Below, piece after piece: positions 232-20,415 of a stretch of DNA of 37,504 bases. Where the stretch lies: the IMG/VR virus record IMGVR_UViG_649989947_000021. One strand, written 5' to 3'. A program made the translations under genes and the position numbers. The notes under the pieces are model-generated. The model saw nothing but the letters and a program-made list of their open reading frames with translations, ran no database searches and was not told where the DNA came from. Position 1 is the first letter of the stretch. Every line of letters begins with the position of its first letter. This stretch comes from a virus (taxonomy: Duplodnaviria; Heunggongvirae; Uroviricota; Caudoviricetes).

Positions 232-834
232 CTAATCAGAATTTATAACCGACACCCACGATGAAACCGTCAGTGCGCCAGTCACCACTGCCGGAGCCTT
301 CATAAGCAATATCAATGGCCACGGATTCGGTCGGGTTAAACTGCACGCCAGCCCCCACGCCAGAGACGTGTTGCTGTGGCGACCGTCATCACTTCCGGTC
401 AGCACATCGTGCGTTTTCCCCTTGTTGTCAGTTACGCGGAGATAATCCCCGGAGAAAGTCGACACACGGCTGTAAGCCACACCCGCCATCGCATACGCGC
501 TGAACCATTCATTCACGCGTACAGACGGCCCCGCCATCACGCTGAACCAGCGGTTACGCACGGAATCTTCATGCCAGCGGGTATCGCTGTAACGGGTAAG
601 CTGGCGATTCTTGTCTCCTGCATAGCTGAATGACGTCACCAGCCCCAGCGTGTCCGTAAATTCATAACGGTATTTCACGTTAATCCCGTTAAGATTATCG
701 CTACCGGGAGCGTTCGTCCGGGCATGAAGATACCCCGCGCTCAGTGTGGACTGATGTTCAGACGCCCATGCAGGCGCACCGGATACGGACAGACAGATGG
801 CTGCGGACAAAATGGCTGCACAAACTTTACGCAT
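232..834 (-). CDS. lom: Lom outer membrane protein (Ail/Lom family)
   Basis: 200-aa ORF with signal peptide [24 protein letters not shown] and beta-barrel-like sequence; located immediately after J as in lambda; GAGG ribosome-binding site upstream. Confidence 0.9.
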
Positions 835-903: not shown

Positions 904-2664
904 TCAACGAATACTGATGCCGGAAGCGGCTTTTTTGGTCACAATCACCGTACAGTCGGTGATATTGCCTGCCCACTGATTGCCTTTCTGGAAAATCTTA
1001 AACTCCAGAGTGACGCTACCACCACCACTAGGCATATCAATAACTGCACTGTAACTACCGGGAATGGCCCCTTTAGTTTCTCTGGATGCGATTAATACAC
1101 CGTTTTTGCGAACTTCAAAACCATAACCCGTGTAACTTGTACCTCCCGGGTTATTACCACTTCCCGGATAGCTATACGCTATTCCGTTAAAGATAATGGG
1201 CGGAATAATGATTTGACGGTCAAAGTTATGATCATCGCTGATGGTGACTGTAACCGTCCCGTTTGGTGTTTCCGTGTTACCCCATGTACCAGCCTGTTTC
1301 GGAAATGATTTGGATACAGCTTTAACGAAGTCACCTCTGACCTGAGTCGCCTCCAGCATGCCCTTAATCGTACAGTTTTCATTTACCGTGACATTGTTGA
1401 GCGTCCCGGCGTTCGCATTCACACTGCCACTGATATCCGCATTTTTAGCGGTCAGCTTTCCGTCTGATGTCAGGGAAAATACCGGAGGACTGCCACCGCT
1501 GGTAATTGTGGGAGCAATAAGGGTCTTAATCAGCGCTTCATTGATAAACGTCTGTCCCCCCTGCGTGACCAGTGCTGGAGTGGTGTTACCGTTCTCCGGA
1601 TTAATGAACGCAATCCTGTCTGCCGCCAGCAGCACCTGACTCTGCATACCGTCAGGGGTATTCTCAATACCGGCACCGATACCCGCAATGTAAAGGCGAC
1701 CATCCTGCATCTGCTGCAGTTTCACGGCCCACATACTGTTCAGGTTATTACTGGTGTCTGTCTGAACCTTTTGTATCTGCTGGATTGTTGCTTCCTGCTC
1801 GCCCAGTTTTTTGTCTGTCGTCGAGATGATTTCACTGCTTTTTTCATCCACATACTGACGAACCTGCGCAATCTGGCGTGCATTCTCCTCATTACTCTGA
1901 CTGACCGTTTGCGTGAGTTCGCTACTGACGTTGTCCACTTTCTGACTCACCTGGGATATGGCCAGTGACTGCTCATCATTTTTTTTAGCAACCAGCTGCG
2001 TGAGGCTGTTTTCAGTTTCCCCGATTTTTTGGGTCACCCCGGCAATATCACTCTCCAGTCGCTGATTGACCTCATCCTCCAGTTGCTCAACTTCACTGCG
2101 CAATGCAGAGGCATTAATACGATCATTCAGCTCCTGCCCCAGCAGGGTGCTGTTTATTTTCCCTTCAAAAAAATTGAGATACTCTTCAGGATTATTACCC
2201 GGCTGGCCGACAGCCTCCACGAATGCCGATTTGCCAACGGTATTCACACTGCGAACATAAAAGTAATAATCATGGCCCGGCTTAATATTCTGGCCGGAGG
2301 CTACCCAGTACAGTGCCGTACCAAGATAGCGGGCAGATTTGTCCACCTGTGAGACATCTGAAATCTTCGTTTCAGAAAACCAGAATTCAAACTGTACCGT
2401 CGGATCATAAACCGCAAGATGCGGCGTGGCGGTTATCTGAAAATAGCCCGGCGTCAGCTCAATCTGTGACGGCGCTGCCGGTGCGGCAATCCGGAACGAT
2501 ACCGACGCCGGATCGCCCTGCTGTCCCCGGGCATTTACCGCCCGGACTGTCAGCGTGTAACGCCCCAACGCCAGCTGCCTGAAGCGGTATGTGGTTTCCG
2601 TCGTCCGGGCCGTGCTGACCAGCCGCTCACTGCCGTCATCCGCTGCCACGGTCAGGCGAAGCAT
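904..2664 (-). CDS. J: host specificity (central tail fiber) protein J, C-terminal segment downstream of a frameshift
   Basis: 586-aa ORF beginning [17 protein letters not shown], which is the continuation of lambda J after ...[11 protein letters not shown]; FN3-like region, then a long Q/E-rich coiled-coil-like stretch and a C-terminal domain that does not match lambda J as I recall it. Confidence 0.85.
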
Positions 2665-4619
2665 AAAGCTCCCCCCTTCACCACCTTCGGCGTGTCCCAG
2701 CGCGCCAGCACCTGGTATTCCCCGCTGTCTGCGGTGACTTCTGCGGTCAGGTGCTGCACTGCTGGCGGCGTGACACCGTTCACCGTGCCACTCTGTTCGC
2801 CGTCAAAGTGCGCCCCGTTATCCACGATGGCCTCTTTTTCCGGCACATGCTGCACGGCGGTGATGGCATACGTGCCGTCGTCGTTCTCACGGATACTCAC
2901 GCAGCGGAACAGTCGCTGGCGCAGCGTCGGCAGCTTCAGCCCCCATACGCTGTATTCAGCAACACCGTCAGGAACACGGCTCACTTTTACCTTCACGCCG
3001 TCGGTGACGGACTGAACCTCCACGCTGACCGGATTGCCACTTCCGTCAACCAGGCTTATCAGCGTGGTACCGGAGGATGGCAGCGTGATTTCACGGTCGA
3101 GCGTCAGCGTCCGGGTCTGGCTGTTCACCGCCAGCACGCGCCCGCCGGTGCTGATACCGGCATAGTCATCATCGCAGATTTCAATGACATCGCCCGGTAC
3201 ATGGCGAAGCCCTTCAGCACCCACGCTGAAGTCCACGGTCTGCGTTTCCAGCAGTTCTGTTTTAATCAGCCACAGCCCGGCGCGGTGTGCCTGCCCCCGA
3301 CTGGTACAGCCAAAGGCATCCATCTTCGTGACGTTACGACCGTAACGGGCAATGGCCTGCGTGTCCTCCACAAGCTCTGTTGCCGTCTCCCAGCCGTTGT
3401 TCGGGTCAATCCAGTTCACCTCAACGGCATTATGGCGGTCCTTCAGGGCGCTGAAGCTGTAGCGGAACGGCGCGCCATCATCCGGCATCACCACATTACT
3501 GCGGTTATAGGTCCACACCTTATCCGACGGTCGGTCCTGCACGAACGTCAGCGTTTGCCCGTTCCATACCGGCATACAGCGCATCGCCGAGCAGAAATCA
3601 CTGAGCACATCCCACGCCTTGCGCTGTGTGGTCAGGTACGCATTACAGGTGATGCGCGGCTCCGTGCCGCCAAAGCCGTCCGGCACTGACTGGTCGCAGT
3701 ACTGGCCGATGACATACAGCGCCCATTTATCCACATCCGCCGCACCAAGACGTTTCCCCATGCCGTAGCGCGGATGGGTAAGCATATCCCACAGACACCA
3801 GGCCATGTTGTTGCTGTATGCCGGTTTTAACGTTCCGTCCCAGATACCGCTGTATTGTCGCGTCTGCGGGTTATAGTTCGACGGCACCTGCAGAATGCGC
3901 CCGCGAAGATGATAATTACGGCTCACCTGCTGGCTGCCGAACTGCTCCGAATCCACCTGTACGCCGACCAGTGCCGTGTTCGGGTAGCACTGTTTCACAT
4001 CGATGATTTCGGTGTATGACGACCAGAGCGTTTTGTTCTGCAGCTGGTCTGTGGTGCTGTCCGGCGTCATCCTGCGCATCCGGATATTGAACGGGCGCGG
4101 CGGCAGGTTACCCACCACCACCGATGCCAGATACTGTGAGGTGGTTTTGCCTTTAATGGTGATGTCTTTTTCCGTCACCCAGCCACCGTTACGTTGTATC
4201 TGAACCAGCAGGCGGACTTCCGACGGATTCCTGTCCCCCTTTGAGGTGGTTTCCACCAGTGCCTGCACACCGAAGGTAAAACGCAGTCGGTCAATGTTTG
4301 CCGACGTGATGGTCCGGGTGATCGGCGTGTCGTATTTCACTTCCGTACCCAGCACCGTCTCGGAGCCGGAGGATTCAAATCCCTCCGGCGGAGTCTGCTC
4401 CTGCTCACCAGCCCGGAACACCACCGTGACACCGGAGATATTGGTATTCCCCTCACTGTCCAGCACCGGCGTACTGTTCAGCAGCACGCTTTTTAATCCA
4501 TCCACCGGACCGTCAATCGGCCCTTCGCTGATGGCATCAATCACACTCAGCAGTTGCGTGGACTTCAGGTTGTCCTTCGCTTCGCGCGGGGTATGCCCCT
4601 TACTGCTTCCTTTGCCCAT
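2652..4619 (-). CDS. J: host specificity protein J, N-terminal segment upstream of a frameshift
   Basis: 655-aa [46 protein letters not shown]..., near-identical to the lambda J N-terminus by recall; ends ...[17 protein letters not shown] where lambda continues in-frame. Confidence 0.9.
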
Positions 4620-4679: not shown

Positions 4680-5327
4680 TCAGCGGCCAATCACCACAAC
4701 CTGACCACCGTCCCCTTCATCTGCCGTGCTGATCTCCTGAGAAACCACACGAGACCCCACGCGCATTTCACCGTACAGAACAGGCAGAACATTGCCCTGG
4801 GCAACCATGTTATCCAGTGATGAGAAATAGGTGTTCTGCTTACCGTTATCCGTGCTGGTCGCTGTGGGCGTCCGGGCTTTCGGTGCCAGCATCTGGGCCA
4901 CACCACCCAGGATCATACTGGCCCCTGCCGCATACATGCCCGATACAGCCGCGGCACCCAGCCAGCCCACAGGGTTCCACCATGCCACCGCAATCAGCGC
5001 CGCCCCCAGCACCACCTGAAACACACCGCCACTTTTAGCTCCCGCCAGATGCGGCACGATGTGGATCACGGCACCATTTGCCAGCGGCTCATTAAGACGG
5101 GCAGATAATTCGGTTTCACCTGCATCACGCCCGGCAATGCGCACCTGATACCAGCCGTCATTCAGTTTCTGACGAAACGCCGGGAGCTGTGTGGACAACG
5201 CCCGGATGGCTTCAGCCCCCGTTTTTACACGAAGGTCGATGCGGCGGCCAAATCGTTGTAAATCCCCGTAAAGGCAGATGCGTGCCATGCCCGGTGACGC
5301 CAGAGGGAGTGTGTGCGTCGCTGCCAT
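4680..5327 (-). CDS. I: tail assembly protein I
   Basis: 215-aa ORF MAATHTLPLASPGMARICLYGDLQRFGRRIDLRV...; overlaps the K 3' end by about 100 nt, as lambda K/I do. Confidence 0.85.
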   Translation of the reverse strand: MAATHTLPLASPGMARICLYGDLQRFGRRIDLRVKTGAEAIRALSTQLPAFRQKLNDGWYQVRIAGRDAGETELSARLNEPLANGAVIHIVPHLAGAKSGGVFQVVLGAALIAVAWWNPVGWLGAAAVSGMYAAGASMILGGVAQMLAPKARTPTATSTDNGKQNTYFSSLDNMVAQGNVLPVLYGEMRVGSRVVSQEISTADEGDGGQVVVIGR

Positions 5328-5968
5328 TTGTCGGTATACCTCTCTCGTTTGCTCAGTTGTTCAGGAATATGGTGCAACAGCTCACCGTCGCCGCAGTAAA
5401 TGGCGGCATGATTCGGCACCGATGAACCAAAACAGCACAGCAGCACATCGCCCGGCTGCGCCGCTGACAACGGCACCTGATACAGCCCTGTGGCCTCCAG
5501 ATTATCCAGATAGAGATTCTGGCCGTTACACCACCAGTCATCCTCACGATGAAAGTCCGGCATCTCAATCCCCGCCAGATGATAAGCATCCCGGAACAGC
5601 GTGTAACAGTCCGTCACCCCGTGCTCAAAGCGCCGCCCGGTAAGATGCGGCACACAGCGGAATTTATGAATCTCACCCCGGCAGACCAGCCACCAAGGCA
5701 AATCGCTCTGCACCTGCAGCCGCCTGTCAGCCTCACTCAGCCAGGGCAGACCACCGGGGTGGCTGTGGACCAGCGCCACAATCTCACCCTGCATCTCTGC
5801 CCGCAGCCAGTCCTCCGGCGACATCCGGAAATACGCCTCCGGCTCACCGGAGATATTCACGCAGGGAAAATATCTTTCCCCTTCCGGCGTTCTCACCACG
5901 AAGCCGCACGACTCCGCTGGCGCACATCGCCGGGCGTGCGCCAGAATCTCTGATTCTGTCTGTGTCAT
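5225..5968 (-). CDS. K: tail assembly protein K (MPN/JAMM plus NlpC/P60 domains)
   Basis: ORF with HSHPGG JAMM-like motif and a C-terminal Cys/His NlpC/P60-like region; start chosen at ATG 5968 (MTQTESEIL...), 5 nt after the L stop; a shorter start is possible. Confidence 0.8.
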   Translation of the reverse strand: MTQTESEILAHARRCAPAESCGFVVRTPEGERYFPCVNISGEPEAYFRMSPEDWLRAEMQGEIVALVHSHPGGLPWLSEADRRLQVQSDLPWWLVCRGEIHKFRCVPHLTGRRFEHGVTDCYTLFRDAYHLAGIEMPDFHREDDWWCNGQNLYLDNLEATGLYQVPLSAAQPGDVLLCCFGSSVPNHAAIYCGDGELLHHIPEQLSKRERYTDKWQRRTHSLWRHRAWHASAFTGIYNDLAAASTFV

Positions 5969-5972: not shown

Positions 5973-6671
5973 TTACTGCGAAAGTTTGTTAATGGAAAGG
6001 AAGCCGCCAAAGTTGCCGACGTTATTGCGAAACTTACAGCCGCTCAGGCATTTGCTGCATTTATCCTTCGTGATATCGGACGTCGGCTGGTCATATTCAT
6101 CCGCGACAGCCGGACCGTGATAACCACACTCATCACCGCGATAGGTCCAGGTGCAGGTGTTGGCCAGCATGATACGCCCCGGAAAAACAGCACCATCCGT
6201 TTCCGTCGGTGTGGACAACACAAAGGAGGCACTGACCGCACTCAGTTCGCTGCACTGCTCGATGCGCCAGCGGCTGATCACCTCCTGCTCCGGATCGGCG
6301 TCGCTGTTTCCGTTGACGAAGTTCACCGCATCCAGAAAACGGGCGTAAACCTTACGCCTGACCACCGTTCCGCCGACCAGACTCTGCAGGTCTTCCGCCA
6401 TCCCCGTGACCATGCCGTGCAGGTTAGAAACCGTCAGTGTCGGACGGGCAGCACTGCCCTTGCCGTTCAGTTCAAATCCTGTCCCCTGAATGGGGTATGC
6501 CTGATACTGCCGCCCCTGCCAGGTAACCGGCTCACCTTTTTCGTTCTGCTCATTACAGAAAAAATAACGTTCACCACCGACCTCTGTCAGATCGATTTCC
6601 CAGAGCACCACCTGGGCTGACTGAGTGAGGCGTGTCGTCTCATGATGTGTTTCCTGTGGAATATCCTGCAT
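5973..6671 (-). CDS. L: minor tail protein L
   Basis: 232-aa ORF MQDIPQETHHETTRLTQSAQVVLWEIDLTEVGGERYFFCNEQ..., lambda L-like by recall. Confidence 0.9.
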   Translation of the reverse strand: MQDIPQETHHETTRLTQSAQVVLWEIDLTEVGGERYFFCNEQNEKGEPVTWQGRQYQAYPIQGTGFELNGKGSAARPTLTVSNLHGMVTGMAEDLQSLVGGTVVRRKVYARFLDAVNFVNGNSDADPEQEVISRWRIEQCSELSAVSASFVLSTPTETDGAVFPGRIMLANTCTWTYRGDECGYHGPAVADEYDQPTSDITKDKCSKCLSGCKFRNNVGNFGGFLSINKLSQ

Positions 6672-6680
6672 CAGAGCCTC

Positions 6681-7011
6681 CTATGCCACGACCTGTTCAA
6701 AATCTGCCGTTATGGTTACCCACAGCGCCCCCACGCTTGCCGACCATTTACGACAAACCACCCTAATCGGTTTCCAGTCATAAGGTGGCGTCCACTGAAA
6801 TGCGCGGACGCCACCGTGCCGTTCCAGAAAGGCTTTTTAAAGATGGGTGTTCACATTTACGAACACGTATCGTCACGCTGTAAGTCGACAACTGGTTATT
6901 CAGTCCCGCCGCACGACGCTGTTCATAACCATCGCCCAGCTTCACTGTCACCACTTTCGGCTCTGATACCACATTCATATCCGGGCGCACTTTCCAGTGA
7001 AACGTCTCCAT
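6681..7011 (-). pseudogene. M: minor tail protein M, interrupted by a +1 frameshift in an A5/T5 run
   Basis: N-terminal frame (6778..7011, METFHWKVRPDMNVV...TYSVTIRV) is M-like, then diverges; the M-like C-terminus (KAFLERHGGVRAFQWTPPYDWKPIRVVCRKWSA...ADFEQVVA, stop at 6683..6681) lies in the adjacent frame; the junction is at the T5 run 6834..6838. Confidence 0.8.
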
Positions 7012-10000
7012 TACCGATATGCTCCACTTAACCGACCACCATCACGGGCCTGCTGTTGCATAAAGTCCGCTGCCGCTTTTATCCCGAGGTCATAAACCGC
7101 CTTCAGGGCAGCCGGACCTATCTGCCCGTTCGTGCCATCGTTATTGATCTCGATGTTGTACTGCGGGGAAAACATCGCCATACCTGAACCCCCAATATCC
7201 GCCACCCCCCCCAGCTTACCGTCAGCACCACGACGCAATGGCAGAATGGCTTCAGGTCCCGCTTCCCCCATCACACCCGCGCCTTTTGCAAAAGCAAAAA
7301 ACGTCGGACGGTTAACCACCGTGCCACTGTAGCGACTCAAATCAGCCGACTGATAAACACCGCCATCAGCATTGGCTACAAAATCAAAAGGCAGCGCGGA
7401 AGCAATGCCTTTTACCGCTTTCATTAAAGCTATCTGAGCCATGATTCTGGACATATCTGACAGCACAGAAGAAGTAAAAGATTTGAAATTGAGTTTGCCT
7501 GTAGTACAGAATGTCGCCAGCCAGTCACTCATGCTACTGAACGCAGACGTGAACAACTGTTCCACTGTCCAGGCTGTGTTATCCGCATTCTCAGTGACAT
7601 TCTGGAGTGCACGCAGGACTCCGTTTTTCCAGTTACCCTGAGCAATTTCAAGCTGTTGCCAGTAACGGCGATTCTCATTCAGTTGTCGGTTCAGGCTCTC
7701 CGTCAGCGCCTGCTCGGCCTTTCTGTAGTCATCCGTGTTATATGTCCCTTTCTGCTCACTATCCCGCCTCAACTGCTCCAGCTGTTGCTGGTATTTCTGA
7801 CGAAGACTCAGTTGTACCTGATATCGCTGCCGCTGCTGATCACCCATACCCACCGTGGCGATATCCAGATTATGTTGTTGACGCTGAGCACGCTCTTCTT
7901 CAGCCAGTTGACTGGTCAGCTGAATTGTTTTTTTCTTCAGCTCGTTGAGTGCCGTCTGTTTCTGAAGCTCCTGCTGTTTTACATCCAGCAGCGTCAGTGC
8001 CTGAATCAGTTCATCTTTACGGGCCAGCACACTCTTTTCATCTGCCGTCAGTTTTTTCCCGTCCAGGTCGCTGATGCGCTGCTGCAGAGCCAGAAGCTGT
8101 TTATGCGCTTCTGTCATCCTTTCCGTGGCAATGCCTGCTGACTGTCTGGCAGCAGCAATCTGTCCTTCCACCTGTGCCTGTTGCTGACTGTACTGCAGCA
8201 ATAACCGGGTGGCCTCATCATTACGGGTTTCGCGTGTTTTTTTCTTACCGGATGCCAGGGCTTTCTCGTAACGTTCATTTTCACGTTGTATCGCCGCATC
8301 CCTGACAGTCTGATCGGCGTACTGCATGGCATTAATACGCGCAATTTCACGCTGATGTCGTGCTGCTTCCGTTTCATTCATCCGGTTCAGTGCAGCATTT
8401 TCAGCATTACGGCGTTTCTGTTGCTCCTGATAATTCCGCTCTGCCTGCTCTTTTGCATCCTGCAAATCCTTCTGGCGTTTTTTTTCCTGAAGCTCGTTAA
8501 GACGCTGCTGATCGTACTCAACCTGAGAAGATGATGCCGTCCAGGGGAGTCTTTTCGCCCGCGACACTTTCTCCTGTAAAGCGGAAATCTGTTCATCCAG
8601 CGAGTCTTCACGACCAATATTCATGGCCGCATCCCAGAAACGACTCCATAAATCAGACAGATACTTCAGCGTACTGCCCAGCGCATTGAGGTTATTATCA
8701 ATATCCGCAGTACGCCGACCGGTTTCCTCTGCCAGTGCAGACATGGCTATCCGTGCCGCATCACTGGACCGCCCCTGTTCCCCAAGGACGCGTATCTGCT
8801 CAAGCTGAGTGGCAGTAAGAAAATGCAGCTCATTGTCCAGAGCCTTCGCGGCATTTACAGGATCATCCTTCAGCCGCTTAAACTGACTTATGGTATCGCT
8901 GACCGACTGGCCAACCGATCGCTCCATCTGTGCGGCAGCTCTCGCCACCATACCGATATCGTTTCCACGAAATGCACCACTCCCCACCACCTGAGCCAGC
9001 GCACCGGCTGCAGCATGTTGCGTGATACCATTCCCGGAAATAGCACGACTGAGCGTCCACAGCTGCCCGGCAGTGACTCCGGCATAATGCCCCGTCAGCG
9101 ACAGCTGGCGGTTAAATTCTTCCCCCTCCTTCTGACCGTCATACCAGGCTTTACCCAGACCATAGACAGCTGCGGCAATACCGCCAATAACCCCGCCCAG
9201 CATCATGCCTTTCGGTGACATCAGTGTGTCTATCCATCCGGCACGGTTAGCCAGCGTTATCCCGGATCCCCTCAGCGCCCCTAAATTGCCGCGGGCCAGT
9301 TCACCTATCAGAACGCCTATCTCCTGGCGGGCCGCTGCACTTTTCAGACCCAGCGAATGCGTGGCTTTTCCTGCCTGCTCCATTTTGCGGATATACACTT
9401 CTGCAGCACTGCTTACCCCCAGCTGGGCAGCCTTAGCACGAAGCAACTCAGAAGATGAAAGATTCTGGCGGGTTGCCTGCTCTTTAAGCTGACGGATAAA
9501 CGCCACTTTCTGTCGGGTACCCTCTTCCTCAGCCTGTGTAAGAACACGGGTTTTCGCCGTAACCTCAGAAATCAGCGCCAGATAATCCTGCTGACCAATC
9601 CCGCCACTGTTTCTGGCCTGTCGGATCTGCTGCTGAATACGCTGTAATTCCTGCAGCCCCGCACTGGCCTGTTTCACACTGTCAATCTGACGATAAAACG
9701 CAGCAGCCGCTTTATCCTGAGCCTCCGCCAGAGCCATGGCCTGCGCCTGTTCCTCGCGCATTTTCTGGCTCAGCGCCTCCATGCGCTGGCGGGTTTTCTC
9801 CACCTCGCGGGCCATGCGTTCATGAGCCTGTGCGTTCTTCTCCACCGTCTGCGCATGGACGGATGCGGCTGTTGCAGCCGAAGAAGCCGCCTGCGTTGTC
9901 TGCCGGGCGGCCTGAGTCTGACGCTCCATAAAACGCTGCATACGGGCAGAAGACCGTTCTGCATCGCTGGCTGCACCATTCAGAAGGTTTTTGATACGGG

Positions 10001-10067
10001 GGATTTCATTTTTAAACTCTGCCGCATCAATCCCCAAATCAATGACCAGGTTGGCTATCTGGTCCAT
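7011..10067 (-). CDS. H: tail tape measure protein H
   Basis: Approximately 1018-aa coiled-coil-rich ORF whose C-terminus (...NNDGTNGQIGPAALKAVYDLGIKAAADFMQQQARDGG...) matches lambda H by recall; start set at ATG 10067 (MDQIANLVIDLGID) with GGAGG 8 nt upstream; the ORF track start at 10097 is TTG. Confidence 0.9.
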   Translation of the reverse strand: MDQIANLVIDLGIDAAEFKNEIPRIKNLLNGAASDAERSSARMQRFMERQTQAARQTTQAASSAATAASVHAQTVEKNAQAHERMAREVEKTRQRMEALSQKMREEQAQAMALAEAQDKAAAAFYRQIDSVKQASAGLQELQRIQQQIRQARNSGGIGQQDYLALISEVTAKTRVLTQAEEEGTRQKVAFIRQLKEQATRQNLSSSELLRAKAAQLGVSSAAEVYIRKMEQAGKATHSLGLKSAAARQEIGVLIGELARGNLGALRGSGITLANRAGWIDTLMSPKGMMLGGVIGGIAAAVYGLGKAWYDGQKEGEEFNRQLSLTGHYAGVTAGQLWTLSRAISGNGITQHAAAGALAQVVGSGAFRGNDIGMVARAAAQMERSVGQSVSDTISQFKRLKDDPVNAAKALDNELHFLTATQLEQIRVLGEQGRSSDAARIAMSALAEETGRRTADIDNNLNALGSTLKYLSDLWSRFWDAAMNIGREDSLDEQISALQEKVSRAKRLPWTASSSQVEYDQQRLNELQEKKRQKDLQDAKEQAERNYQEQQKRRNAENAALNRMNETEAARHQREIARINAMQYADQTVRDAAIQRENERYEKALASGKKKTRETRNDEATRLLLQYSQQQAQVEGQIAAARQSAGIATERMTEAHKQLLALQQRISDLDGKKLTADEKSVLARKDELIQALTLLDVKQQELQKQTALNELKKKTIQLTSQLAEEERAQRQQHNLDIATVGMGDQQRQRYQVQLSLRQKYQQQLEQLRRDSEQKGTYNTDDYRKAEQALTESLNRQLNENRRYWQQLEIAQGNWKNGVLRALQNVTENADNTAWTVEQLFTSAFSSMSDWLATFCTTGKLNFKSFTSSVLSDMSRIMAQIALMKAVKGIASALPFDFVANADGGVYQSADLSRYSGTVVNRPTFFAFAKGAGVMGEAGPEAILPLRRGADGKLGGVADIGGSGMAMFSPQYNIEINNDGTNGQIGPAALKAVYDLGIKAAADFMQQQARDGGRLSGAYR

Positions 10068-10389
10068 AACGCACACCTCCGGAAATACCTTCCCCAAGAT
10101 GCATCAGTTCTTCGTCCGTTCGCTCCGGTATCCCGTTCTCTTCCGGTAAAAGGCTGAAATCAGCCACCGCAGCATCACTGCTGCCGGACACCATTCTCAC
10201 GATCAATGCCTTCAGCGAGGCAAACTGCGCATCCATCCACACATCACTGAAGCTCTGCATCCGGAAATAATCGCCCCACTCACCAAGCTCAGTGGCCGAC
10301 ATTTCCGACAGCATCCGCCGCCAGTCTGCCCGCCGGAACTCCCGGGCAAGCCGCATGACAAACTGCATTTCCCGCGTCAGGACTTTTCC
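10039..10389 (-). CDS. T: T-frame part of the G-T tail assembly chaperone, expressed by -1 frameshift from G
   Basis: ORF in the -1 frame relative to G, open only from 10401 downward, overlapping the G 3' end and the H start; same arrangement as lambda G/G-T. Confidence 0.7.
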   Translation of the reverse strand, partial: GKVLTREMQFVMRLAREFRRADWRRMLSEMSATELGEWGDYFRMQSFSDVWMDAQFASLKALIVRMVSGSSDAAVADFSLLPEENGIPERTDEELMHLGEGISGGVRYGPDSQPGH

Positions 10390-10766
10390 GGCGTCAGCGC
10401 CTCATGCTCATCATCCCCGGCATTATCAATGGTCCCCATACCGCTCAGCGACAGAACCATCTCCGCCCCCGCACCCAGGGCATCATACGACCATGTTGTA
10501 ATAACGGATGCGCAAAGCGTCTCTACATCCTTAGACTGATCCGCATTCCACTGTGAGCGGGAAACCAGCCAGGCATTGATATCCATCCCCATCCGCAGAA
10601 AAGCAATCTGTCGTTCAGCCTCCGGCAGTTCTCCCTCTTCGGCATCAAACTTTGCCGTTCGCTGCTGAACAAACGCCAGATATTCAATTCTCTGCAGCCC
10701 GGACAGCTCACTGAGCACCACGGACTGCTTTTCATAATTAAACGTGCCCTGTTTCAGAAACATCAT
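10377..10766 (-). CDS. G: tail assembly chaperone G
   Basis: ORF ...MMFLKQGTFNYEKQSVVLSELSGLQRIEYLAFVQQ... ending EALTPEKS; start at ATG 10766 with GGTGGAG upstream (ORF track start at 10805 is TTG and overlaps the terminator). Confidence 0.85.
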   Translation of the reverse strand: MMFLKQGTFNYEKQSVVLSELSGLQRIEYLAFVQQRTAKFDAEEGELPEAERQIAFLRMGMDINAWLVSRSQWNADQSKDVETLCASVITTWSYDALGAGAEMVLSLSGMGTIDNAGDDEHEALTPEKS

Positions 10767-10776
10767 GTTCTCCACC

Positions 10777-10803
10777 TGAAAAAAAGCCCCGGATAACCGG
10801 GGC
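10777..10803 (-). terminator. hairpin plus U-run between V and G (attenuator or terminator)
   Basis: Minus strand GCCCCGG-TTAT-CCGGGGC followed by TTTTTTT, immediately upstream of the G ribosome-binding site. Confidence 0.5.
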
Positions 10804-10823
10804 AAATGATGAGTATCGTCCTG

Positions 10824-11567
10824 TTAACCTGCGGCGCTGACAGCCACCGCAGCCACTGCCACAAAATCGCCGTCAGAAGTCATGCCCACAATGCTGACAC
10901 TGCCCTGCTTCACGCCTTTCACCGTGGCCACAAGCCCGTTCAGGGTCACCGTGGCAGTCTGTGGATCTGTCGAATGCACACTGATCGCTTTGTCACTGGC
11001 TCCGTCAGGTTTTACTGTAAAGGTCAGCGTGGTGGTTGCTCCCACTTTTACACTGGCAGATGCCGGTGCCACCGTCAGCCCGGTAACGCCCACAGTTTCA
11101 GTGCCCTCCTCTGCCAGATACGGACGCCCCACACCGCTGATTTTCACTGTGCGGGTCATCACGTCTTTTGAGGCAATGGTTTTACCCAGTGAGCTCAGCC
11201 AGCCACGGAAAACATCAACAGTGCCGTTGGGATATTTGATACGAAACGCGCAGACTTCACCGGAGTCGAACAACTGAACCAGTTTTTTCTGCCCGCTGTC
11301 ACCCGGACGCCAGGCCAGCGTCGCCGAAGTATCACCAACGGATTTCTGCCCCTGGGTTGTCGTTTTCCAGTCTGCATCTTCATCATCGAGATAAGTGTCA
11401 TCTTCTGCATCAGCGGTCATTTCGCCAGGTTGCAGATCCTTCACCATCGCAAGACGCAGCCAGTCAGTGTCCGACAAAGGGTTCGCAAATGCGTCGCCGT
11501 TGCCGGTATACATCCAGAACGTCGTTCCCGCACCTTTCGTTTTTGCCAGTGGATTTGGTGTGGTCAT
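10824..11567 (-). CDS. V: major tail protein V with C-terminal Ig-like domain
   Basis: MTTPNPLAKTKGAGTTFWMYTGNGDAFANPLSDTDW... is lambda V-like; AAGGAGG ribosome-binding site before ATG 11567; C-terminal Big_2-like segment. Confidence 0.9.
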   Translation of the reverse strand: MTTPNPLAKTKGAGTTFWMYTGNGDAFANPLSDTDWLRLAMVKDLQPGEMTADAEDDTYLDDEDADWKTTTQGQKSVGDTSATLAWRPGDSGQKKLVQLFDSGEVCAFRIKYPNGTVDVFRGWLSSLGKTIASKDVMTRTVKISGVGRPYLAEEGTETVGVTGLTVAPASASVKVGATTTLTFTVKPDGASDKAISVHSTDPQTATVTLNGLVATVKGVKQGSVSIVGMTSDGDFVAVAAVAVSAAG

Positions 11568-11577
11568 TACCACCTCC

Positions 11578-11979
11578 TTAATTCGTGTACGTGATCTGGT
11601 ACGTGATTTCCGCCATCGCCCAGGTGGCCATCTCATTATCACGTTGATAGTTAAAACCGAGTGGGATCAGGGTGTCGATGAGTCCGGAAAGTGCCGGTAC
11701 ATCATTCAGGGCCGGGAAAATGGTGCTCTCCATCCACATATCCAGCTCTGAATCCGGTGCTTGTGCCCGGATGAAGACAGCAATATGCAGAACAGCCTGC
11801 CAGTCATCTTCATCCGTCATTTTTCCGGTGTACTGAGCATCACTCAGCCACACCGACACGGCAGGCAGTTCCTGCGCATCAACAAATGCCGGAAGCCCGT
11901 CAAAAAACGTGGCGCTGTCTCCACACTGTTCCCGAAGGCGTGCCAGTACGACCTGGCGGATTTGTGTATGTCGGTTCAT
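11578..11979 (-). CDS. U: tail terminator protein U
   Basis: MNRHTQIRQVVLARLREQCGDSATFFDG..., lambda U-like; ATGA overlap with the Z stop. Confidence 0.85.
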   Translation of the reverse strand: MNRHTQIRQVVLARLREQCGDSATFFDGLPAFVDAQELPAVSVWLSDAQYTGKMTDEDDWQAVLHIAVFIRAQAPDSELDMWMESTIFPALNDVPALSGLIDTLIPLGFNYQRDNEMATWAMAEITYQITYTN

Positions 11980-12554
11980 CGGGTCAGCCATAACCTCAGT
12001 TGTTGTTTCAGTGCATAACCCAACTGTTTCGGCATTTCCGCAGCAATGATGCGGTCGCGGGCATCTTCAAATGCCTGTGTCAGCGGTCCGGACAACGGGA
12101 TTTTCACCACATCAATGGGGTAACGATTTTTGCCATCAATACGCCGCATCACATGCCAGCGACCATTCGCCAGTTGCTGAATAAACGCATCCCGGAAAAG
12201 ATATTTACCCACCTTCAGCACACTGCCACGGTACTGCAGTTTTCCACCACGCCGGGCCAGTCTGACCCGGGCTGTCCCCAGCTTAATGGCGGGCAGATTG
12301 CCCCGGTTGACGCGGATCCTGGCCGTCATTTTTCCTGACGGACTGGCTTTAAACACCCGGACACGCTGACGTACCAGTTTCAGGGGTATCCCTTTCACCT
12401 GGTTATCTCCCGCAACGGTATTCCCGGCAACCTGCCGGGTGGCAACCGAGACCGCTTTCTGTGCCACACGGTTTATCGCCCATGCGCTGGCCTGTGGCAC
12501 CATACGGGTATCAAGGCTGTTCAGATTGCGGATGGCATTCTCAAGCCCCTTCAT
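11976..12554 (-). CDS. Z: tail completion protein Z
   Basis: 192-aa ORF, same length and position as lambda Z. Confidence 0.8.
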   Translation of the reverse strand: MKGLENAIRNLNSLDTRMVPQASAWAINRVAQKAVSVATRQVAGNTVAGDNQVKGIPLKLVRQRVRVFKASPSGKMTARIRVNRGNLPAIKLGTARVRLARRGGKLQYRGSVLKVGKYLFRDAFIQQLANGRWHVMRRIDGKNRYPIDVVKIPLSGPLTQAFEDARDRIIAAEMPKQLGYALKQQLRLWLTR

Positions 12555-12565
12555 CCCACACCTCT

Positions 12566-12841
12566 TTACTCAATAAAGATCATTGGCTTACCGTTAAAGC
12601 GTTCATGCCGTGTGACCGTCCAATGTTGTCCGTCATAAACAACGCGATCCCCGCGCCGTGGGCGGTATCCCAAAGAAAACACCACCAGAGAGACAGCAGG
12701 TCCGGACAGAGCATTCAGCTCTGCCAGTGTTTCGCCCGGGATCACAGCCATATCGACATCATTAATCGAGGCTGTCTTTCCCATCTTTCTGACCGTGATC
12801 GCATCCATACGCGCTGCCAGCCGAGAAAAGGGATCAGACAT
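12566..12841 (-). CDS. head-tail joining protein (FII-like)
   Basis: 91-aa ORF located between the head module and Z; assignment is mainly by position and size. Confidence 0.5.
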   Translation of the reverse strand: MSDPFSRLAARMDAITVRKMGKTASINDVDMAVIPGETLAELNALSGPAVSLVVFSLGYRPRRGDRVVYDGQHWTVTRHERFNGKPMIFIE

Positions 12842-13157
12842 TGAGTTTTACCGGCACTTCTTCTGCACTGGTTCCGGCATCTGCCCAGACAACCCCGACC
12901 AGCGGATCAGAGCCGCTGTTAGTCAGCTGAACTTTTCCGGACTTCAGATAAACCTTCTTACCCGTTTTCATGTCATCCGTTTTCAGCTTAGGCAGGATAA
13001 ACACACCTTCGGTCATGCCGTCGCCTGTTTCACCCTGTGGAATATCGGTCAGCGCCACCGCAAAAACATCACCCACCTGCACCAGATCTCCGCTGCTGAT
13101 GGCTGCACTGGCAACAATCGCCACCGTTTTTCCTTCTTCTACAAAATTCTTTGCCAT
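12834..13157 (-). CDS. small capsid-associated protein (possible head decoration or stabilisation protein)
   Basis: ORF MAKNFVEEGKTVAIVASAAISSGDLVQVGDVF... with GGAG 7 nt upstream of ATG 13157; immediately follows the capsid gene; family assignment uncertain. Confidence 0.45.
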   Translation of the reverse strand: MAKNFVEEGKTVAIVASAAISSGDLVQVGDVFAVALTDIPQGETGDGMTEGVFILPKLKTDDMKTGKKVYLKSGKVQLTNSGSDPLVGVVWADAGTSAEEVPVKLNV

Positions 13158-13243
13158 AACTGTCTCCGCACAGCCCCGTTCAGGGGCTGATTTCAGGTAC
13201 AAAAAAAGCCCTTACGGGCCATCAGAGTTGTTGTCTGCGACGT

Positions 13244-15202
13244 TTACGCCGTACATTTCACCAGACCGCGGTGATCAACTGGCGCGACACCGGCGTCAAT
13301 ACGCACTTTCGTTGTCACGCCATCCACACTGAAGCCCTCCATCTGATCAATATATGGCGTATCCACACCGTTGAGATAAGCCACTTCAATCGTATCGGAG
13401 CCTTTGGACGCAGCCAGGTAGAAGGTGGTCTGGCTGTTATCATCAAGACGAGGCTCTGCAATAACGGTCGCAAAATCTTTCACCGGGTTAATAATACCGG
13501 CGTTAATGTCAGCCCCCTTGACACTTGAGGAGCGAATGACCTGGTTAGCAACAGACTCCATCGCCGTCGGTACCAGTACGAACGCAGGACGAATATTCAG
13601 ATGACGCTCCCCCTCTTTCTGAACGCGCATCAACTGGCGGGCTTTATCCAGCGATGCCACGTCCATTGCAGCGCTCTCCAGTACGTTTGCATGTTTCGCT
13701 TTATCGAACAGACTTACATTATCTGTGGAGATTTTCGGGTTAGACGTCAGAATGGCATAAACCAGATCGGCAATAGTGGATTTCGCCGCACGGCCCAGTT
13801 TCATCGGGACATCGGTCAGCATATTCAGATCATCATTGATAATGGCCTGACGGGTGATACTGAACAGCTCGCCATAGGTCGCCAGTGCAATAGTGGCCTG
13901 TTTATCTCCGGTGGTGACGTATTTATATTCCGCCCCTTCACGCACCTGACGCAGAGCACTGAAGCCCCCCATACCCACACGATGGGCAATTTTAAAATCA
14001 GACAACTGACCTTTCCGCGTCCACTGTTCATAGGTTTCAGGGGCATCTTCCCAGCCCTGCAGAATGGCTTTGTTCGCAACATCCAGCAGAATATTACCGA
14101 AGTCAGACGTACTGTGTGTGAACGCCGCACCGACCATCTGCATCGGGTTATAACTGGAAACCCCAATACCCCGTTCAGTCAGTGACATACGGGCATATTC
14201 ACGCAGGGTCATCCCGTTGTAGACATTATCACGTTCGGTTTTTTCAAATCCGGCACGCGCCATCAGCGCCTGGCGGATCCCGTCCCCCACAAAATTACCG
14301 TTACCGGCATAAATATGAGCCGGGGTATTTTTATTGGATGGCGTGGACTCGCGCCCCATCTCGTTCAACAACTTTTCGCGGGCCTGCTCCAGCGAACATT
14401 CAGGATCGGCAAGACACTGAGCCTGCAGCGTCTGATAACGCCCGCCAAACATGGCAAACAGATCATTAATACCGTTTACACGCGCTTTTTGCTCTGCCAG
14501 TACCTGCGCACGGATACTGTTTTCATCCACCACGGGTGCTGCTGCCTGCACTGGCGTCCGGGAGGCTGCAGGTTCATCATCCTGTACGCATGGAGCACTG
14601 TTGCGTGGCGGAGTAATCATGTTTCGAATGGATTCCGGCATCTTTTTAAATTCCTCTGTACGTTTTGACTGAATACATGCCATTGCCTTAACGGCTGGCG
14701 TTACCTGATCAGCAAATCCCTGTGCCAGACATTCGGCACCGGACATCCAGGTCTCATCCGCCAGCATGGCAGCAATTTCATCGGTGGTTTTCCCGGTTTT
14801 CTGTGCATAAGCGGGTAACAGAACCGCCTCAACCTTATCGAGCAGGTCGGCATAGGTGCGCATGTCCTCCGCATCACCGCCCGTAAAGCCAAATGGTTTA
14901 TGAATCATCATGAAGGTGTTTTCCGGCATAATGACCGGGTTTCCCACCATCGCAATGACCGACGCCATTGACGCCGCCACACCGTCGACATAAACGGTAA
15001 TGGACGCACCATGTGTTTTCAGCGCATTAAAAATGGCGATGCCTTCAAAGACATCGCCACCCGGTGAATTAATATGGAGATTAATGTGGGTGATATCGCC
15101 CAGTGCATTCAGATCACTGATAAACTGCTTCGCTGTAACACCCCAGAAACCAATCTCGTCATAAATATAAATATCCGCGTCACTCTGGTGACCAGCCTGC
15201 AT
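13244..15202 (-). CDS. prohead protease (ClpP/S49-like) - scaffold - major capsid protein fusion
   Basis: Long ORF: N-terminal ...ADIYIYDEIGFWGVTAKQFISDL...HINSPGGDVFEGIAIFNAL...ASMASVIAM is ClpP-like; Ala/Gln-rich linker; C-terminal half is capsid-like; start set at ATG 15202, just after the portal stop. Confidence 0.8.
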   Translation of the reverse strand: MQAGHQSDADIYIYDEIGFWGVTAKQFISDLNALGDITHINLHINSPGGDVFEGIAIFNALKTHGASITVYVDGVAASMASVIAMVGNPVIMPENTFMMIHKPFGFTGGDAEDMRTYADLLDKVEAVLLPAYAQKTGKTTDEIAAMLADETWMSGAECLAQGFADQVTPAVKAMACIQSKRTEEFKKMPESIRNMITPPRNSAPCVQDDEPAASRTPVQAAAPVVDENSIRAQVLAEQKARVNGINDLFAMFGGRYQTLQAQCLADPECSLEQAREKLLNEMGRESTPSNKNTPAHIYAGNGNFVGDGIRQALMARAGFEKTERDNVYNGMTLREYARMSLTERGIGVSSYNPMQMVGAAFTHSTSDFGNILLDVANKAILQGWEDAPETYEQWTRKGQLSDFKIAHRVGMGGFSALRQVREGAEYKYVTTGDKQATIALATYGELFSITRQAIINDDLNMLTDVPMKLGRAAKSTIADLVYAILTSNPKISTDNVSLFDKAKHANVLESAAMDVASLDKARQLMRVQKEGERHLNIRPAFVLVPTAMESVANQVIRSSSVKGADINAGIINPVKDFATVIAEPRLDDNSQTTFYLAASKGSDTIEVAYLNGVDTPYIDQMEGFSVDGVTTKVRIDAGVAPVDHRGLVKCTA

Positions 15203-15215
15203 CCTGAACCAGGAA

Positions 15216-16724
15216 TTATTCTTCGGACTGGTCGTCGGTGTGCTGTGGCTCCTGTCGTTTCGTTGCGGCACTGCTGCCTCCTTTATCACTGGCCGGATCG
15301 GTATCAAATACCAGATCCAGCTTGCGGTTTTCATCAATTTCGGCCTTGCGCCGACGTTTGACATCATCCGGATTACGACCACCTGCACGTACCCAGTCTG
15401 ATTCTGTCGCCGCTCCACCACGAATCTGGATTTTCCAGGCCTCAGCCTCCTTAACAGGGTCAATCCACGGCATCACTGGTCCGGAATACACCGCGGTATA
15501 CAGTGAAGAACGGTCAAGATCGCGGGGTAGCCTGATAACACCGGATGCCACAGCCTGTTTCAGCCAGGCACGATACATCGGGCGGGTGACGGCACCAATA
15601 AACCAGTCCTGCAGGATCAGGTAGCCATCAGTAGACTCAACCAGTTCCTGACGCTGGGCGCTGTAAGTGCCGTTATAGTTGCGTGCCGTACTGGAAAAAC
15701 TCAGACGACTGCCCGCCGCCACGGCACGCAACTGACCATTACGAAAAGTTTCAAGGTTAGGATTGGGACGATCCGACTTCACCATTCCGATTTCTTCGCC
15801 GGGTTTCAGATCGTCGTAAATAATGCCTGGCTGAATGGTAAGCTCGCGTTCATTCTCCTTGCTGCCATTACCATCCGGTTCATAGCTCTGCCCGTCGCCT
15901 TTCCGGATGTACATCCCCAGAGCAGCGGCGATCCTTGCTGCAGTCAGCTCAGAATCTTCATACTCTTTCAGGGCACTGAGGCGGATCAGCACACCGGACA
16001 ACAAAGACGTCCCGCGCATCTGGTGCAGACGGCGAACAAATTTAAGATGCAGCATTCGCTCTGCATCCACTTCTTTGGTTTCCATCTGCCGCCCGGATAC
16101 GGGACGGCTTTTATACACCAGATATTTTTCGGGACGCCCCCAGTCATCAACAAACACGCCCTGATTCAGCCTGTTGCTCTCATCACTGGTCATGGGAATA
16201 AAGTCCGGCTCGAGCGCCTCCAGCCAGAAATGAACACCGGCAGAAGGCGTCAGGCTGTTTATGCGCCCGGAAACCATCTGGGCAAACACCTCACCATCGC
16301 GCAGCCAGGTACGCAGCATCAGACGTTCCAGCATCGGACGGGTAAACTGCCCGGTGACTTCCGGACTGACAGACCATTCACTCCATCGGGTGCGTATCTC
16401 CGCTGCCAGATCACGGGCAATGGCCCCATTGCGTAATACCGGATGTGGCTCGACAATAATCCCGTTTTTCCCCACCACCCGTTCTTCCAGCTTGTCAAAT
16501 ACACCAATAACCAGATCGTGGTTGTTATCAAGGTAACGGGCCTGCTCACGTAACGACACGGCCCCGTACTGGCTTAACTGGTCGGCAGTTCGGTTTTCCC
16601 GCCGGGCTTTGTGTGTCCGCGTCGTTTTTACGGCCTCATAAGCCTGGATCACCGCACGGGAACGCAGCCTTGCCGCTTTCCATCCTGGTGAAAAAACGCC
16701 AATCACATCATCAAGAATTGCCAT
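15216..16724 (-). CDS. portal protein
   Basis: Approximately 502-aa ORF between W-like gene and protease-capsid gene; start at ATG 16724 (MAILDDVIGVFSPGW...) overlapping the W stop by 1 nt. Confidence 0.85.
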   Translation of the reverse strand: MAILDDVIGVFSPGWKAARLRSRAVIQAYEAVKTTRTHKARRENRTADQLSQYGAVSLREQARYLDNNHDLVIGVFDKLEERVVGKNGIIVEPHPVLRNGAIARDLAAEIRTRWSEWSVSPEVTGQFTRPMLERLMLRTWLRDGEVFAQMVSGRINSLTPSAGVHFWLEALEPDFIPMTSDESNRLNQGVFVDDWGRPEKYLVYKSRPVSGRQMETKEVDAERMLHLKFVRRLHQMRGTSLLSGVLIRLSALKEYEDSELTAARIAAALGMYIRKGDGQSYEPDGNGSKENERELTIQPGIIYDDLKPGEEIGMVKSDRPNPNLETFRNGQLRAVAAGSRLSFSSTARNYNGTYSAQRQELVESTDGYLILQDWFIGAVTRPMYRAWLKQAVASGVIRLPRDLDRSSLYTAVYSGPVMPWIDPVKEAEAWKIQIRGGAATESDWVRAGGRNPDDVKRRRKAEIDENRKLDLVFDTDPASDKGGSSAATKRQEPQHTDDQSEE

Positions 16725-16936
16725 CAGAACCTCGCCAGCCGGTACCCGGGATGCCCCCGTCGTCGTGTAATCAGAGCCGCAAGGCGGCGCTCCCACTCCT
16801 GCCGTCCCTGCCGGATCTCAGATAAGTTTTCCATGGTCATCTGCTGACCATTAAAGGTGACGGATTTTCCGTCCAGCACCGCCATTTCAGCTTCCGTATA
16901 ACGCTGAATCATGGCTTCGATATCATTCTGGTTCAT
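16724..16936 (-). CDS. W: head-tail joining protein W-like
   Basis: 70-aa ORF ending ...ITRRRGHPGYRLARF, resembling lambda gpW; ATGA overlap with the terminase stop. Confidence 0.6.
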   Translation of the reverse strand: MNQNDIEAMIQRYTEAEMAVLDGKSVTFNGQQMTMENLSEIRQGRQEWERRLAALITRRRGHPGYRLARF

Positions 16937-19032
16937 AACCATCCTCCGGAAGTCAGCCAGGGGTTAACATCGTCAGTTACTGTTTTCTTCCGTTTTTGTT
17001 TTTTAACAGGCGTGGATACCGGTTCCGGTGAGGGTGACGGTTCGGTACTGTCCGGGACACACTCCAGCCAGGTTTCCCGGCTCGCCCACTCCGGTGCATC
17101 CGGCCAGCGGATCTTTTCGTATCCATGCAGAATGACCAGAGCCTCGGCATACACCATCAGGTCAAAAGCTTCGTTGGCACCGCGACCCGGCTTACTCCAT
17201 TTCCCGTCACTACTCCGCTCTTCATACGTCAGTTCGTCGTAAAACCAGCTCCCCAGCCAGTCAGGGAAATGCACATAGCCGGGACCTGGCGAGTCACGCC
17301 ATAACGCGTTATTCATCCGGTCTTTCAGGGCATCCGTCTGAAGAAGCCAGAGCGGCACATCACCTGCGGCCTGCGCCCGTCGGCCCGTTCGTCCGGTGTT
17401 ATCAGGGAATGTACGGGTGATCAGTTTTGCGCGCCGGATGCTGTCGCCCTTAAACAGGTAAATACGTTTACCAAGGCCATCACGACGGCAACGACGCCAG
17501 AATTTATAGGCATTATCAGTGACCCCGTCTTCACCGCCGGAGTCCACCGCCATTGCCATCAGTCGCATTTGTTGAGAAGGATCGGAGGCCAGCGGCCAGC
17601 TTTTATGAAAAACATCTGTCAGCAGGACATCCCAGTCTTCCGGATAGCTGGCCGGATCAATTCGCTGGCTCTCCCCGTCGCTGTCACCGCGCAATGACTG
17701 CGTGATGTTGTAACGATCAATAATCCAGCGTTCGCCACGGCTGCCATAGCCCGTTACCTGAACCACAAAACGGCGATGACGTCCCGCCTGCACATCCACT
17801 GTCGCCACAAGAAAATTAACGCCATCCGGCACACTGCGGGAATGAACTGGCTCTGCCCGCTGCTCAAGCAGTTCACTTTTTCGTTGCTCCATGCTGGCGC
17901 GGGGAAGATAAGGTAATCCCCAGTCGGTGTTGATAACCGCCCTGAGTGTTTCTTCACTTCCTGTCGCTTCATACTCCTGTTCTGCAGTCAGTAATTTGTA
18001 AACCAGTTGCGCCCAGGTCTGATACGCAGCAGCTGGCCCTTCCATCCAGAAACTGGCGATACGGGAGCGGCGCGGTTCACCGGAAACGTTGCCGTTACAA
18101 TCAATGACCTGACCTTCACGCAACCAGACTCCTGCACTATTGAGCTCACGCTTTTTCTCCGCAGTGATAATGCCGCTGCAGTGCGGGCAAAGTAGATACG
18201 CCGCCTCACTGGCTTTAAAGGGATCCGGTTCATTACGGTAGCCGGTCATGGCATCCATGGCTGGCTGAAAATATTCACCGCAGTGCGGACATGGCCAGTA
18301 CCAGCGGCGGCGGTCACCACGATTGTAAAGGGAAAGAATACCAGTCGTCGGTGGCGCTTCATGAGGCGACTTACGTCGCCATTTGCTGTCGCAGATGTCA
18401 CGTCCCGGCGAGCTCTCCACCAGAGTCATCCCGGAGGACATAAATGTGGTGGTACGTTTTGAGGCCAGGGAGAAACCATCACCCTCGCTGTCGATATTCT
18501 CCGGAAAACGGTCGTAATCGGTTAAGGCGACAAACCGGTAATCCGACGACGACATAATGTTGACCGAGGGCCAACCAATTTTAAGGAACGAGCCATCCCT
18601 GAACGTCTTATCATGGACATTATTGTCATTACGACGTGGACTCATTCTTTTCTTTACCGCCGCACTGCTTCTGAACGTTCTGTCGAGGCGCTTTTTTGAA
18701 TGCTCGCGGGCCTTATCTTCGGTCATCTGCACAACGAGCATGTCCGAAGGATCGCAAACGATGGTATAGACAATCCATCCATCGATCAGACCAATGGTCT
18801 TCCCTGTTCGCGCAGGACCAACAAAAATCACCGCATCGTATTCACGCGATGCCAGGCAGTTCATGGGCTCAATGATGTAGGGTGTCAGTTCAGGATCCCA
18901 TGGCACCGAGTTACCAGCCCCCTTGGGAACACGCATGAATTTTTTAACAGCCTCCGAAATCGGCATGCGACGTGGTGGAGAAAATCCTGCCGATATGTCC
19001 CTTCCCAAATTTCGGGCTGATGAAAAACCCAT
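16933..19032 (-). CDS. A: terminase large subunit (lambda A-like)
   Basis: 699-aa ORF with ATPase N-terminal region and nuclease-like C-terminal region; AGGAGG ribosome-binding site; follows the small subunit. Confidence 0.9.
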   Translation of the reverse strand: MGFSSARNLGRDISAGFSPPRRMPISEAVKKFMRVPKGAGNSVPWDPELTPYIIEPMNCLASREYDAVIFVGPARTGKTIGLIDGWIVYTIVCDPSDMLVVQMTEDKAREHSKKRLDRTFRSSAAVKKRMSPRRNDNNVHDKTFRDGSFLKIGWPSVNIMSSSDYRFVALTDYDRFPENIDSEGDGFSLASKRTTTFMSSGMTLVESSPGRDICDSKWRRKSPHEAPPTTGILSLYNRGDRRRWYWPCPHCGEYFQPAMDAMTGYRNEPDPFKASEAAYLLCPHCSGIITAEKKRELNSAGVWLREGQVIDCNGNVSGEPRRSRIASFWMEGPAAAYQTWAQLVYKLLTAEQEYEATGSEETLRAVINTDWGLPYLPRASMEQRKSELLEQRAEPVHSRSVPDGVNFLVATVDVQAGRHRRFVVQVTGYGSRGERWIIDRYNITQSLRGDSDGESQRIDPASYPEDWDVLLTDVFHKSWPLASDPSQQMRLMAMAVDSGGEDGVTDNAYKFWRRCRRDGLGKRIYLFKGDSIRRAKLITRTFPDNTGRTGRRAQAAGDVPLWLLQTDALKDRMNNALWRDSPGPGYVHFPDWLGSWFYDELTYEERSSDGKWSKPGRGANEAFDLMVYAEALVILHGYEKIRWPDAPEWASRETWLECVPDSTEPSPSPEPVSTPVKKQKRKKTVTDDVNPWLTSGGWL

Positions 19033-19040
19033 TATTCCTC

Positions 19041-19568
19041 CTAGAGACTCTCTCCTTCCTCATCAGGAATTAATTCAGCAGCACAAGCCTCGTAGGATTT
19101 TTCCTGAAGAGTGTATCGCAGGTCATCAATGGCCTGCTGTACAACGCCAACGGCCTGAGGAGTCAGGGCGCAATCGCGTTCAAGAACATCCGGAATTGTC
19201 TCCAGAACCTGGACGACAGCCTTTCTCATGGACGAATAGACGATGACTACTTCATCAACGGGGATGAGTTTTCGCTGCTCCTTTTCCAGCTTGATCCTTT
19301 CATTTTCAGACTGGTACCAGTCCTTTCTCTCTTTCGGCTCCATACGGGATGGATCATGAACAGAGTCTGCTGCCTCATGCTTCACACTAAACAGGGCTGG
19401 CCCGACATGCTGCAGGGCGTAAACGGGGTTCCCCCTGACAGTCGCAGCCACAGGAGTGTTGGCCGCGAGAAGCCGTTTTTTTACTGTGTCCCGGTGAAGC
19501 CCAAAGGCCTCAGCGATTTTAAAAACACTCCAGTAATAAGCATCACCGATCCCGCTCACATTTGACAT
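19041..19568 (-). CDS. nu1: terminase small subunit (Nu1-like, HTH DNA-binding)
   Basis: ORF MSNVSGIGDAYYWSVFKIAEAFGLHRDTVKKRL... with N-terminal helix-turn-helix; GGAG upstream of ATG 19568; directly upstream of the large subunit. Confidence 0.75.
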   Translation of the reverse strand: MSNVSGIGDAYYWSVFKIAEAFGLHRDTVKKRLLAANTPVAATVRGNPVYALQHVGPALFSVKHEAADSVHDPSRMEPKERKDWYQSENERIKLEKEQRKLIPVDEVVIVYSSMRKAVVQVLETIPDVLERDCALTPQAVGVVQQAIDDLRYTLQEKSYEACAAELIPDEEGESL

Positions 19569-20394: not shown

Positions 20395-20415
20395 AGATTC
20401 GTGTTTTTTCTCCAG

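Follow-up and report, generated by a model that had tools for sequence, protein, structure and literature searches.

Is the split of the minor tail gene M in this prophage carried by the DNA, or did it arise when the deposited sequence was put together? The window, that is, the whole stretch of 37,504 nucleotides (nt) analysed here, makes up the opening 37.5 kb of the deposited draft contig ADUL01000068.1 (GCA_000183005.2), with window coordinates equal to contig coordinates minus 2, and it holds a lambdoid prophage whose late genes lie on the minus strand. M is placed between the tape measure gene H (7011..10067, minus strand; 1018 amino acids (aa); Pfam TMP_2, TMP_4 and Tape_meas_lam_C) and the gene for minor tail protein L (5973..6671, minus strand; 232 aa; PF05100), followed by K (5225-5968, minus strand), I (4680-5327, minus strand) and J, and the same annotation is found in relatives. 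The stop codon of H overlaps the start codon of M (TAATG), and L starts 9 nt past the true stop of M. As deposited, M is an open reading frame (ORF) of 77 aa (6778..7011, minus strand), consisting of M residues 1-59 followed by 18 out-of-frame residues (SLSGTARWRPRISVDATL) and a stop at 6778-6780. The C-terminal 50 codons (KAFLERHGG...DFEQVVA) and their TAG are located at 6681..6833 on the minus strand, in the +1 frame relative to the N-terminal part.

At the junction of the two parts lies a homopolymer run at 6834..6838, T5 on the plus strand and A5 on the coding strand, which is one base above all relatives (A4). The coding strand at the run reads ...CCA TCT TTA AAA AGC CTT TCT..., and the +1 frame reads ...(TAA) AAA GCC TTT CTG GAA CGG CAC GGT GGC, encoding KAFLERHGG... 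and ending with TAG at 6683-6681 (full +1-frame translation, KAFLERHGGVRAFQWTPPYDWKPIRVVCRKWSASVGALWVTITADFEQVVA). Since an in-frame TAA formed by T-A1-A2 shuts the +1 frame just upstream, only the A run could host a shift that restores M. In line with this, residues 2-59 of the 77-aa ORF match profile positions 1-58 of the Pfam family PF05939 (Phage_min_tail; E 8.5e-17), and the 50-aa +1-frame piece matches profile positions 59-108 (E 7.9e-17). Both halves join precisely at the A run and leave no gap, which rules out a chance pattern; a single base has been cleanly inserted between profile positions 58 and 59, and the gene is otherwise undamaged. With one A removed, the whole gene spans 6681..7011 on the minus strand and encodes 109 aa plus stop, a distal tail protein of the lambda gpM type. 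This repaired protein matches PF05939 end to end (135.7 bits against a cut-off of 39; profile positions 1-108 of 108) and aligns gap-free over residues 1-108 with the lambda 'Tail tip protein M' (PDB 8IYK_M; E 1.1e-36). The original prediction had described an M homologue split by one extra base in an A5/T5 run, and both this description and all of its coordinates are borne out by the PF05939 halves, 8IYK_M and the alignments. It had also placed the length of M with four bases for five at roughly 110 aa, in agreement with the 109 aa called in the A4 copy of Logan SRR040463 (see below). The junction at T5 6834..6838 stands as well, and only the wording that M diverges 'after TIRV' needs amending, as homology to intact relatives reaches K59 (...RKCEHPSLK|AFLERHGG).

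Across the wider population, M is encoded in one frame in 1,775 of 1,775 complete-genome records and in all phage relatives. The 71-nt stretch with A5 had no exact match in 1,775 complete E. coli records (1,902 places), and all but one of the complete E. coli matches to this query are one base shorter. Likewise, each of 14 phage genomes with at least 98.5% identity spans 400 nt of a 401-nt query. A 33-mer with A4 is found in at least 120 IMG/VR contigs, its A5 form in none and an allele with an inserted G in one, and the M insertion allele had no match in JGI metagenome contigs or in GTDB representative genomes. At the protein level, repaired M is identical to the WP_000447253.1 cluster, present on at least 1,000 contigs, and the exact 77-aa product is represented in the database by EFR15476.1. 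An accession close to it, EFR16544, is cited for E. coli 2362-75 (PMC3897749), so that this EPEC strain is the probable source. The comparison with relatives that the original prediction had proposed thus came out in its favour: related prophages have M unsplit, and five T are not confirmed by assemblies of independent read sets.

The conservation of a single frame also bears on recoding, either as programmed +1 slippage of tRNA-Lys on A_AAA_A or as transcriptional slippage, with the 77-aa protein serving as an additional, regulated product. With five A, tRNA-Lys could re-pair in the +1 frame (AAA to AAA), and intact relatives carry an in-frame T_TTA_AAA of the X_XXY_YYZ type, at which a -1 slip would give the same 77-aa product. 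However, neither the split frame nor the slip site is conserved and all homologues encode M in one frame, and a programmed frameshift in M was rejected for this lack of conservation among homologues. To our knowledge, the AGC following the slip site is neither a stop nor a known hungry codon. Efficient transcriptional slippage is also known only for runs far longer than five A. Furthermore, no M frameshift has been described for lambda, whose virion contains full-length gpM of 109 residues (PMC10721106). Recoding is accordingly given a chance close to negligible. As a separate observation, the canonical slippery heptamer T_TTA_AAA is in frame in intact M (window site 6832-6842, minus strand), where slippage would be purely hypothetical.

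Assemblies of the same prophage genotype allow a closer comparison. An exact look-up of the H protein of the window returned only three contigs, including Logan SRR040463_368. Over 7,485 bp, this contig aligns to window positions 6582-14067 with 0 mismatches, the sole difference being A4, and its M is called at 109 aa. Similarly, Logan SRR040464_148 aligns to window positions 6932-19689 with 0 mismatches and two homopolymer indels elsewhere in 12.8 kb, and its M is 109 aa. From sequence identity and the era of the accessions, we infer that SRR040463 and SRR040464 are probably reads of the deposited strain. The draft NJMD01 (GCA_002466345.1) is 100% identical to the window over 6933-20856 and 21116-22718, yet has A4 and an intact 109-aa M. 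It shares the J frameshift of the window as well as the junction of an IS10 element, which its second identical stretch enters by 158 bp. A look-up of the ORF at the IS10 junction recovered only the deposit and NJMD01, the Logan contigs being presumably interrupted at the IS. NJMD01 itself may represent a sister isolate instead of the same culture. Exact protein matches of K and the helicase were too widespread to tell strains apart. A 109-aa M is also found in the close relatives UFZD01 (2 mismatches in 6.2 kb), AIFA01 and AIEV01. Together, these comparisons show the extra A to be, at the level of assembled sequence, private to the deposited contig and absent in every independent copy examined, including the same-genotype assemblies.

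Outside the source, a truncated M (the exact 77-aa product or one at least 90% identical) was found in MS6198, JABTXQ, JABTXU, UGCO01 and one Logan contig. JABTXQ and JABTXU each contain 94 indel events in ~15 kb, and UGCO01 contains 30 in 10.9 kb. MS6198 (CP015834.1, ~4,738,128) has a G inserted at the same M position (TTTGAAAA), giving an identical 77-aa product; roughly twelve 1-nt indels are scattered over the surrounding 7 kb, the annotation marks each of H, M and L as frameshifted, and the region is probably poorly polished. The Logan contig (1.5 kb) comes from the unrelated run SRR12364719 and has A5 as its sole indel. As A5 elsewhere is mostly seen in indel-rich assemblies, calling A4 as A5 is an error that recurs in indel-prone data. 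The same set of sequences could be taken as a recurrent hot spot or phase-variable switch, in which A4 and A5 interconvert in vivo in many lineages and turn tail assembly off, as the insertion is found at the exact M position on at least five sequence backgrounds. Yet for four of these five backgrounds the assembly has dozens of further indels close by, and none of the 1,775 high-quality genome records has A5. A run of 4-5 nt is, as far as we know, too short for known contingency loci. A switch of this kind is scarcely plausible. It is also very improbable that A5 is real here and marks a recurrent slippage hot spot, hit independently in several lineages, with a 77-aa N-terminal gpM fragment identical to what a -1 slip in the intact gene would yield; if true, it would hint at a natural short isoform of M.

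The original prediction had regarded M as the second homopolymer frameshift in an essential tail gene, next to J, and had taken the pair to point to systematic homopolymer error or a decaying prophage. The first of these does not hold. J (904-4619, minus strand) is split into ORFs of 655 and 586 aa with the junction at ~2652-2671, and its lesion is complex, GGGCGTG having become GGGGGG (AAG GGC GTG AGC in intact relatives, AAGGGGGGAGC in the window). The stretch with the J frameshift is 101/101 nt identical in the finished genome of E2348/69, where J is annotated as 'frameshifted', and the exact 655-aa and 586-aa fragments are found in UFZD01, AIFA01, NJMD01, CBCSKR01, AIEV01, AIFB01 and AFJB01. 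Since the lesion is common to finished E2348/69 and at least seven other independent assemblies, it represents a real, inherited pseudogene and cannot serve as a companion error to M. Systematic error is further contradicted by the alignment of the window to NJMD01, which shows only one indel, together with six clustered SNPs, in ~21 kb. Homopolymer runs of at least 4 nt number 573 in the 37.5-kb window, and the early region has no indel over 12 kb relative to its closest relative.

Sibling assemblies from the same era do display homopolymer miscalls relative to the window, which fits an error at M, three in 15.6 kb for AFJB01 and the two in 12.8 kb for Logan SRR040464 mentioned above. At window positions 7934, 8243, 8485, 19685 and 21649, AFJB01000021.1 and SRR040464_148 differ from the window only in homopolymer length, in runs of 4-8 nt and mostly of 6-8 nt. 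These differences break H in the two assemblies and are typical indel-type errors, the window being correct at these longer runs. Given that the window has the right length at T7/T8 runs miscalled in sibling assemblies, one would not expect, a priori, an error in a run as short as A4. As for substitutions, the six SNPs in K are located within 73 bp (5336-5408) and are the only ones between the window and NJMD01 over ~21 kb. The cluster suggests either recombination over a small patch or, in one of the two assemblies, cross-talk between the tail modules of paralogous prophages.

A second gene in the same region, lom (232-834, minus strand), was considered as a third possible error. Its ORF of 200 aa covers only positions 1-164 of 199 in Pfam Ail_Lom, and its last ~36 residues are out of frame. 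The cause is a G5 run (352-356 on the plus strand) where relatives matching the profile end to end have G6 or an interrupted run. The C5/C6 difference was rejected as an error, because finished genomes commonly carry the allele of the window: it is 100% identical in many finished E. coli genomes and annotated as 'frameshifted' in O157 strain 86-24. Judged by these matches, the lom lesion is a real and widespread pseudo-allele. The prophage is thus genuinely defective through inherited J and lom frameshifts.

Beyond the tail genes, the head genes extend up to ~19.6 kb and are followed by lysis genes. An IS10 element of 1,329 bp (22561-23889), encoding a 402-aa transposase and carrying typical IS10 ends, interrupts a gene for a hypothetical protein of 306 aa between the Q-like antiterminator gene and the lysis genes. 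It is flanked by a 9-bp target duplication (GGCCTTGTA) at 22552-22560 and 23890-23898, and its junction is present in NJMD01000144.1 and absent from AFJB01 and F719. The early region is related to Stx2f-type phages. Finally, the integrase gene (428 aa; 36218 to the window end) adjoins mlrA, a MerR-family regulator gene past the right end of the window (contig 37.5-38.7 kb), which places the prophage at an mlrA/yehV-type integration site.

The decay of this prophage gives some room to a genuine mutation: a very recent slippage event would have lengthened A4 to A5, either in the clone that was sequenced or in one copy of a paralogous prophage pair, inactivating M and taking the decay of an already defective element one step further. 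Since J is no longer functional, selection on M would be relaxed, making a real new mutation in M plausible. The inherited J lesion, the lom allele annotated as frameshifted in a finished O157 genome and the IS10 insertion are all consistent with such a course, as are the further real frameshifts that the E2348/69 relative has gained in H and J. The deposit is otherwise accurate in homopolymers, and the short Logan contig from SRR12364719 shows that A5 may occur as the only indel in an unrelated run. Moreover, these EPEC genomes harbour several prophages whose tail modules are near-identical, as in UFZD01, so a graph assembler could pop a real A5/A4 bubble. Against this, the same-genotype assemblies SRR040463, SRR040464 and NJMD01 all have A4, and the M allele, unlike those of J and lom, is common by descent to no relative. 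A genuine mutation is therefore considered unlikely. The notion of a decaying prophage raised in the original prediction consequently fits the prophage overall (J, lom, IS10) and is not the best explanation for the split in M.

The split is instead probably a consensus artefact, with A4 called as A5 in the deposited draft contig, as judged from the assemblies compared here. The change is one in the length of a mononucleotide run (A5 vs A4), it is not reproduced by independent data of the same genotype, and relatives that share the lesions of J and lom by descent do not share this one. In the real DNA, M would be intact, most likely reading ...TCT TTA AAA GCC TTT... and encoding 109 aa. The one spurious A would be a homopolymer overcall, of a kind typical of pyrosequencing-era or otherwise indel-prone data, and we infer that the deposit was made with a homopolymer-error-prone chemistry. 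The database entry EFR15476.1, a 77-aa 'Phage minor tail protein', is then probably an artefact too. The split itself carries little biological weight, as M is a structural gene that is already well understood and the lesion is very likely absent from the DNA. A homopolymer frameshift alone is nevertheless no evidence of sequencing error, as J and lom, within the same 7 kb, look equally suspicious yet are real. A real frameshift can be told from an error by setting it against population data and independent assemblies, but not by sequence context.

Several known systems can be set beside this locus. Homopolymer miscalls in draft or long-read assemblies resemble the M split in being single-base changes of a run, discordant with same-genotype data and recurring in indel-rich assemblies. 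The probable error in M differs from typical miscalls in that it is isolated and not systematic, lying in a run of only 4 nt on an otherwise clean contig. Among phages and prophages, cdtI (NC_009514), mEp460 (NC_019716) and the prophages of ~1,770 complete E. coli genomes are identical to the window at 400/401 nt over M and its flanks, the difference being their A4 against the A5 of the window. The prophage of EPEC E2348/69 (NC_011601 ~1,050-1,088 kb, with nleB2/nleC/nleD) has a tail module 98.2% identical to that of the window. In contrast to the window, its M is intact and its early region and integration site are different, and it carries extra frameshifts, namely A7 vs A8 in J (window 1986) and a 1-nt deletion in H (window 7955). 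These extra lesions illustrate the stepwise decay of this prophage lineage in a finished genome.

The closest functional counterpart is found in lambda, where gpM is the distal tail protein and forms a hexameric ring anchoring the gpL/gpJ tip to the tail tube, with all 109 residues ordered in the virion (PMC10721106). Like repaired M, lambda gpM is 109 aa long, aligns gap-free over residues 1-108, matches PF05939 in full and is encoded in the gene order H-M-L-K-I-J. Unlike lambda gpM, M as deposited has its frame broken after K59, and about half of the residues differ. Cut after residue 59, the protein would be left without half of its beta-sandwich and so would be non-functional, whereas the 109-aa M may, by likeness to lambda, form a hexameric ring in the same role.
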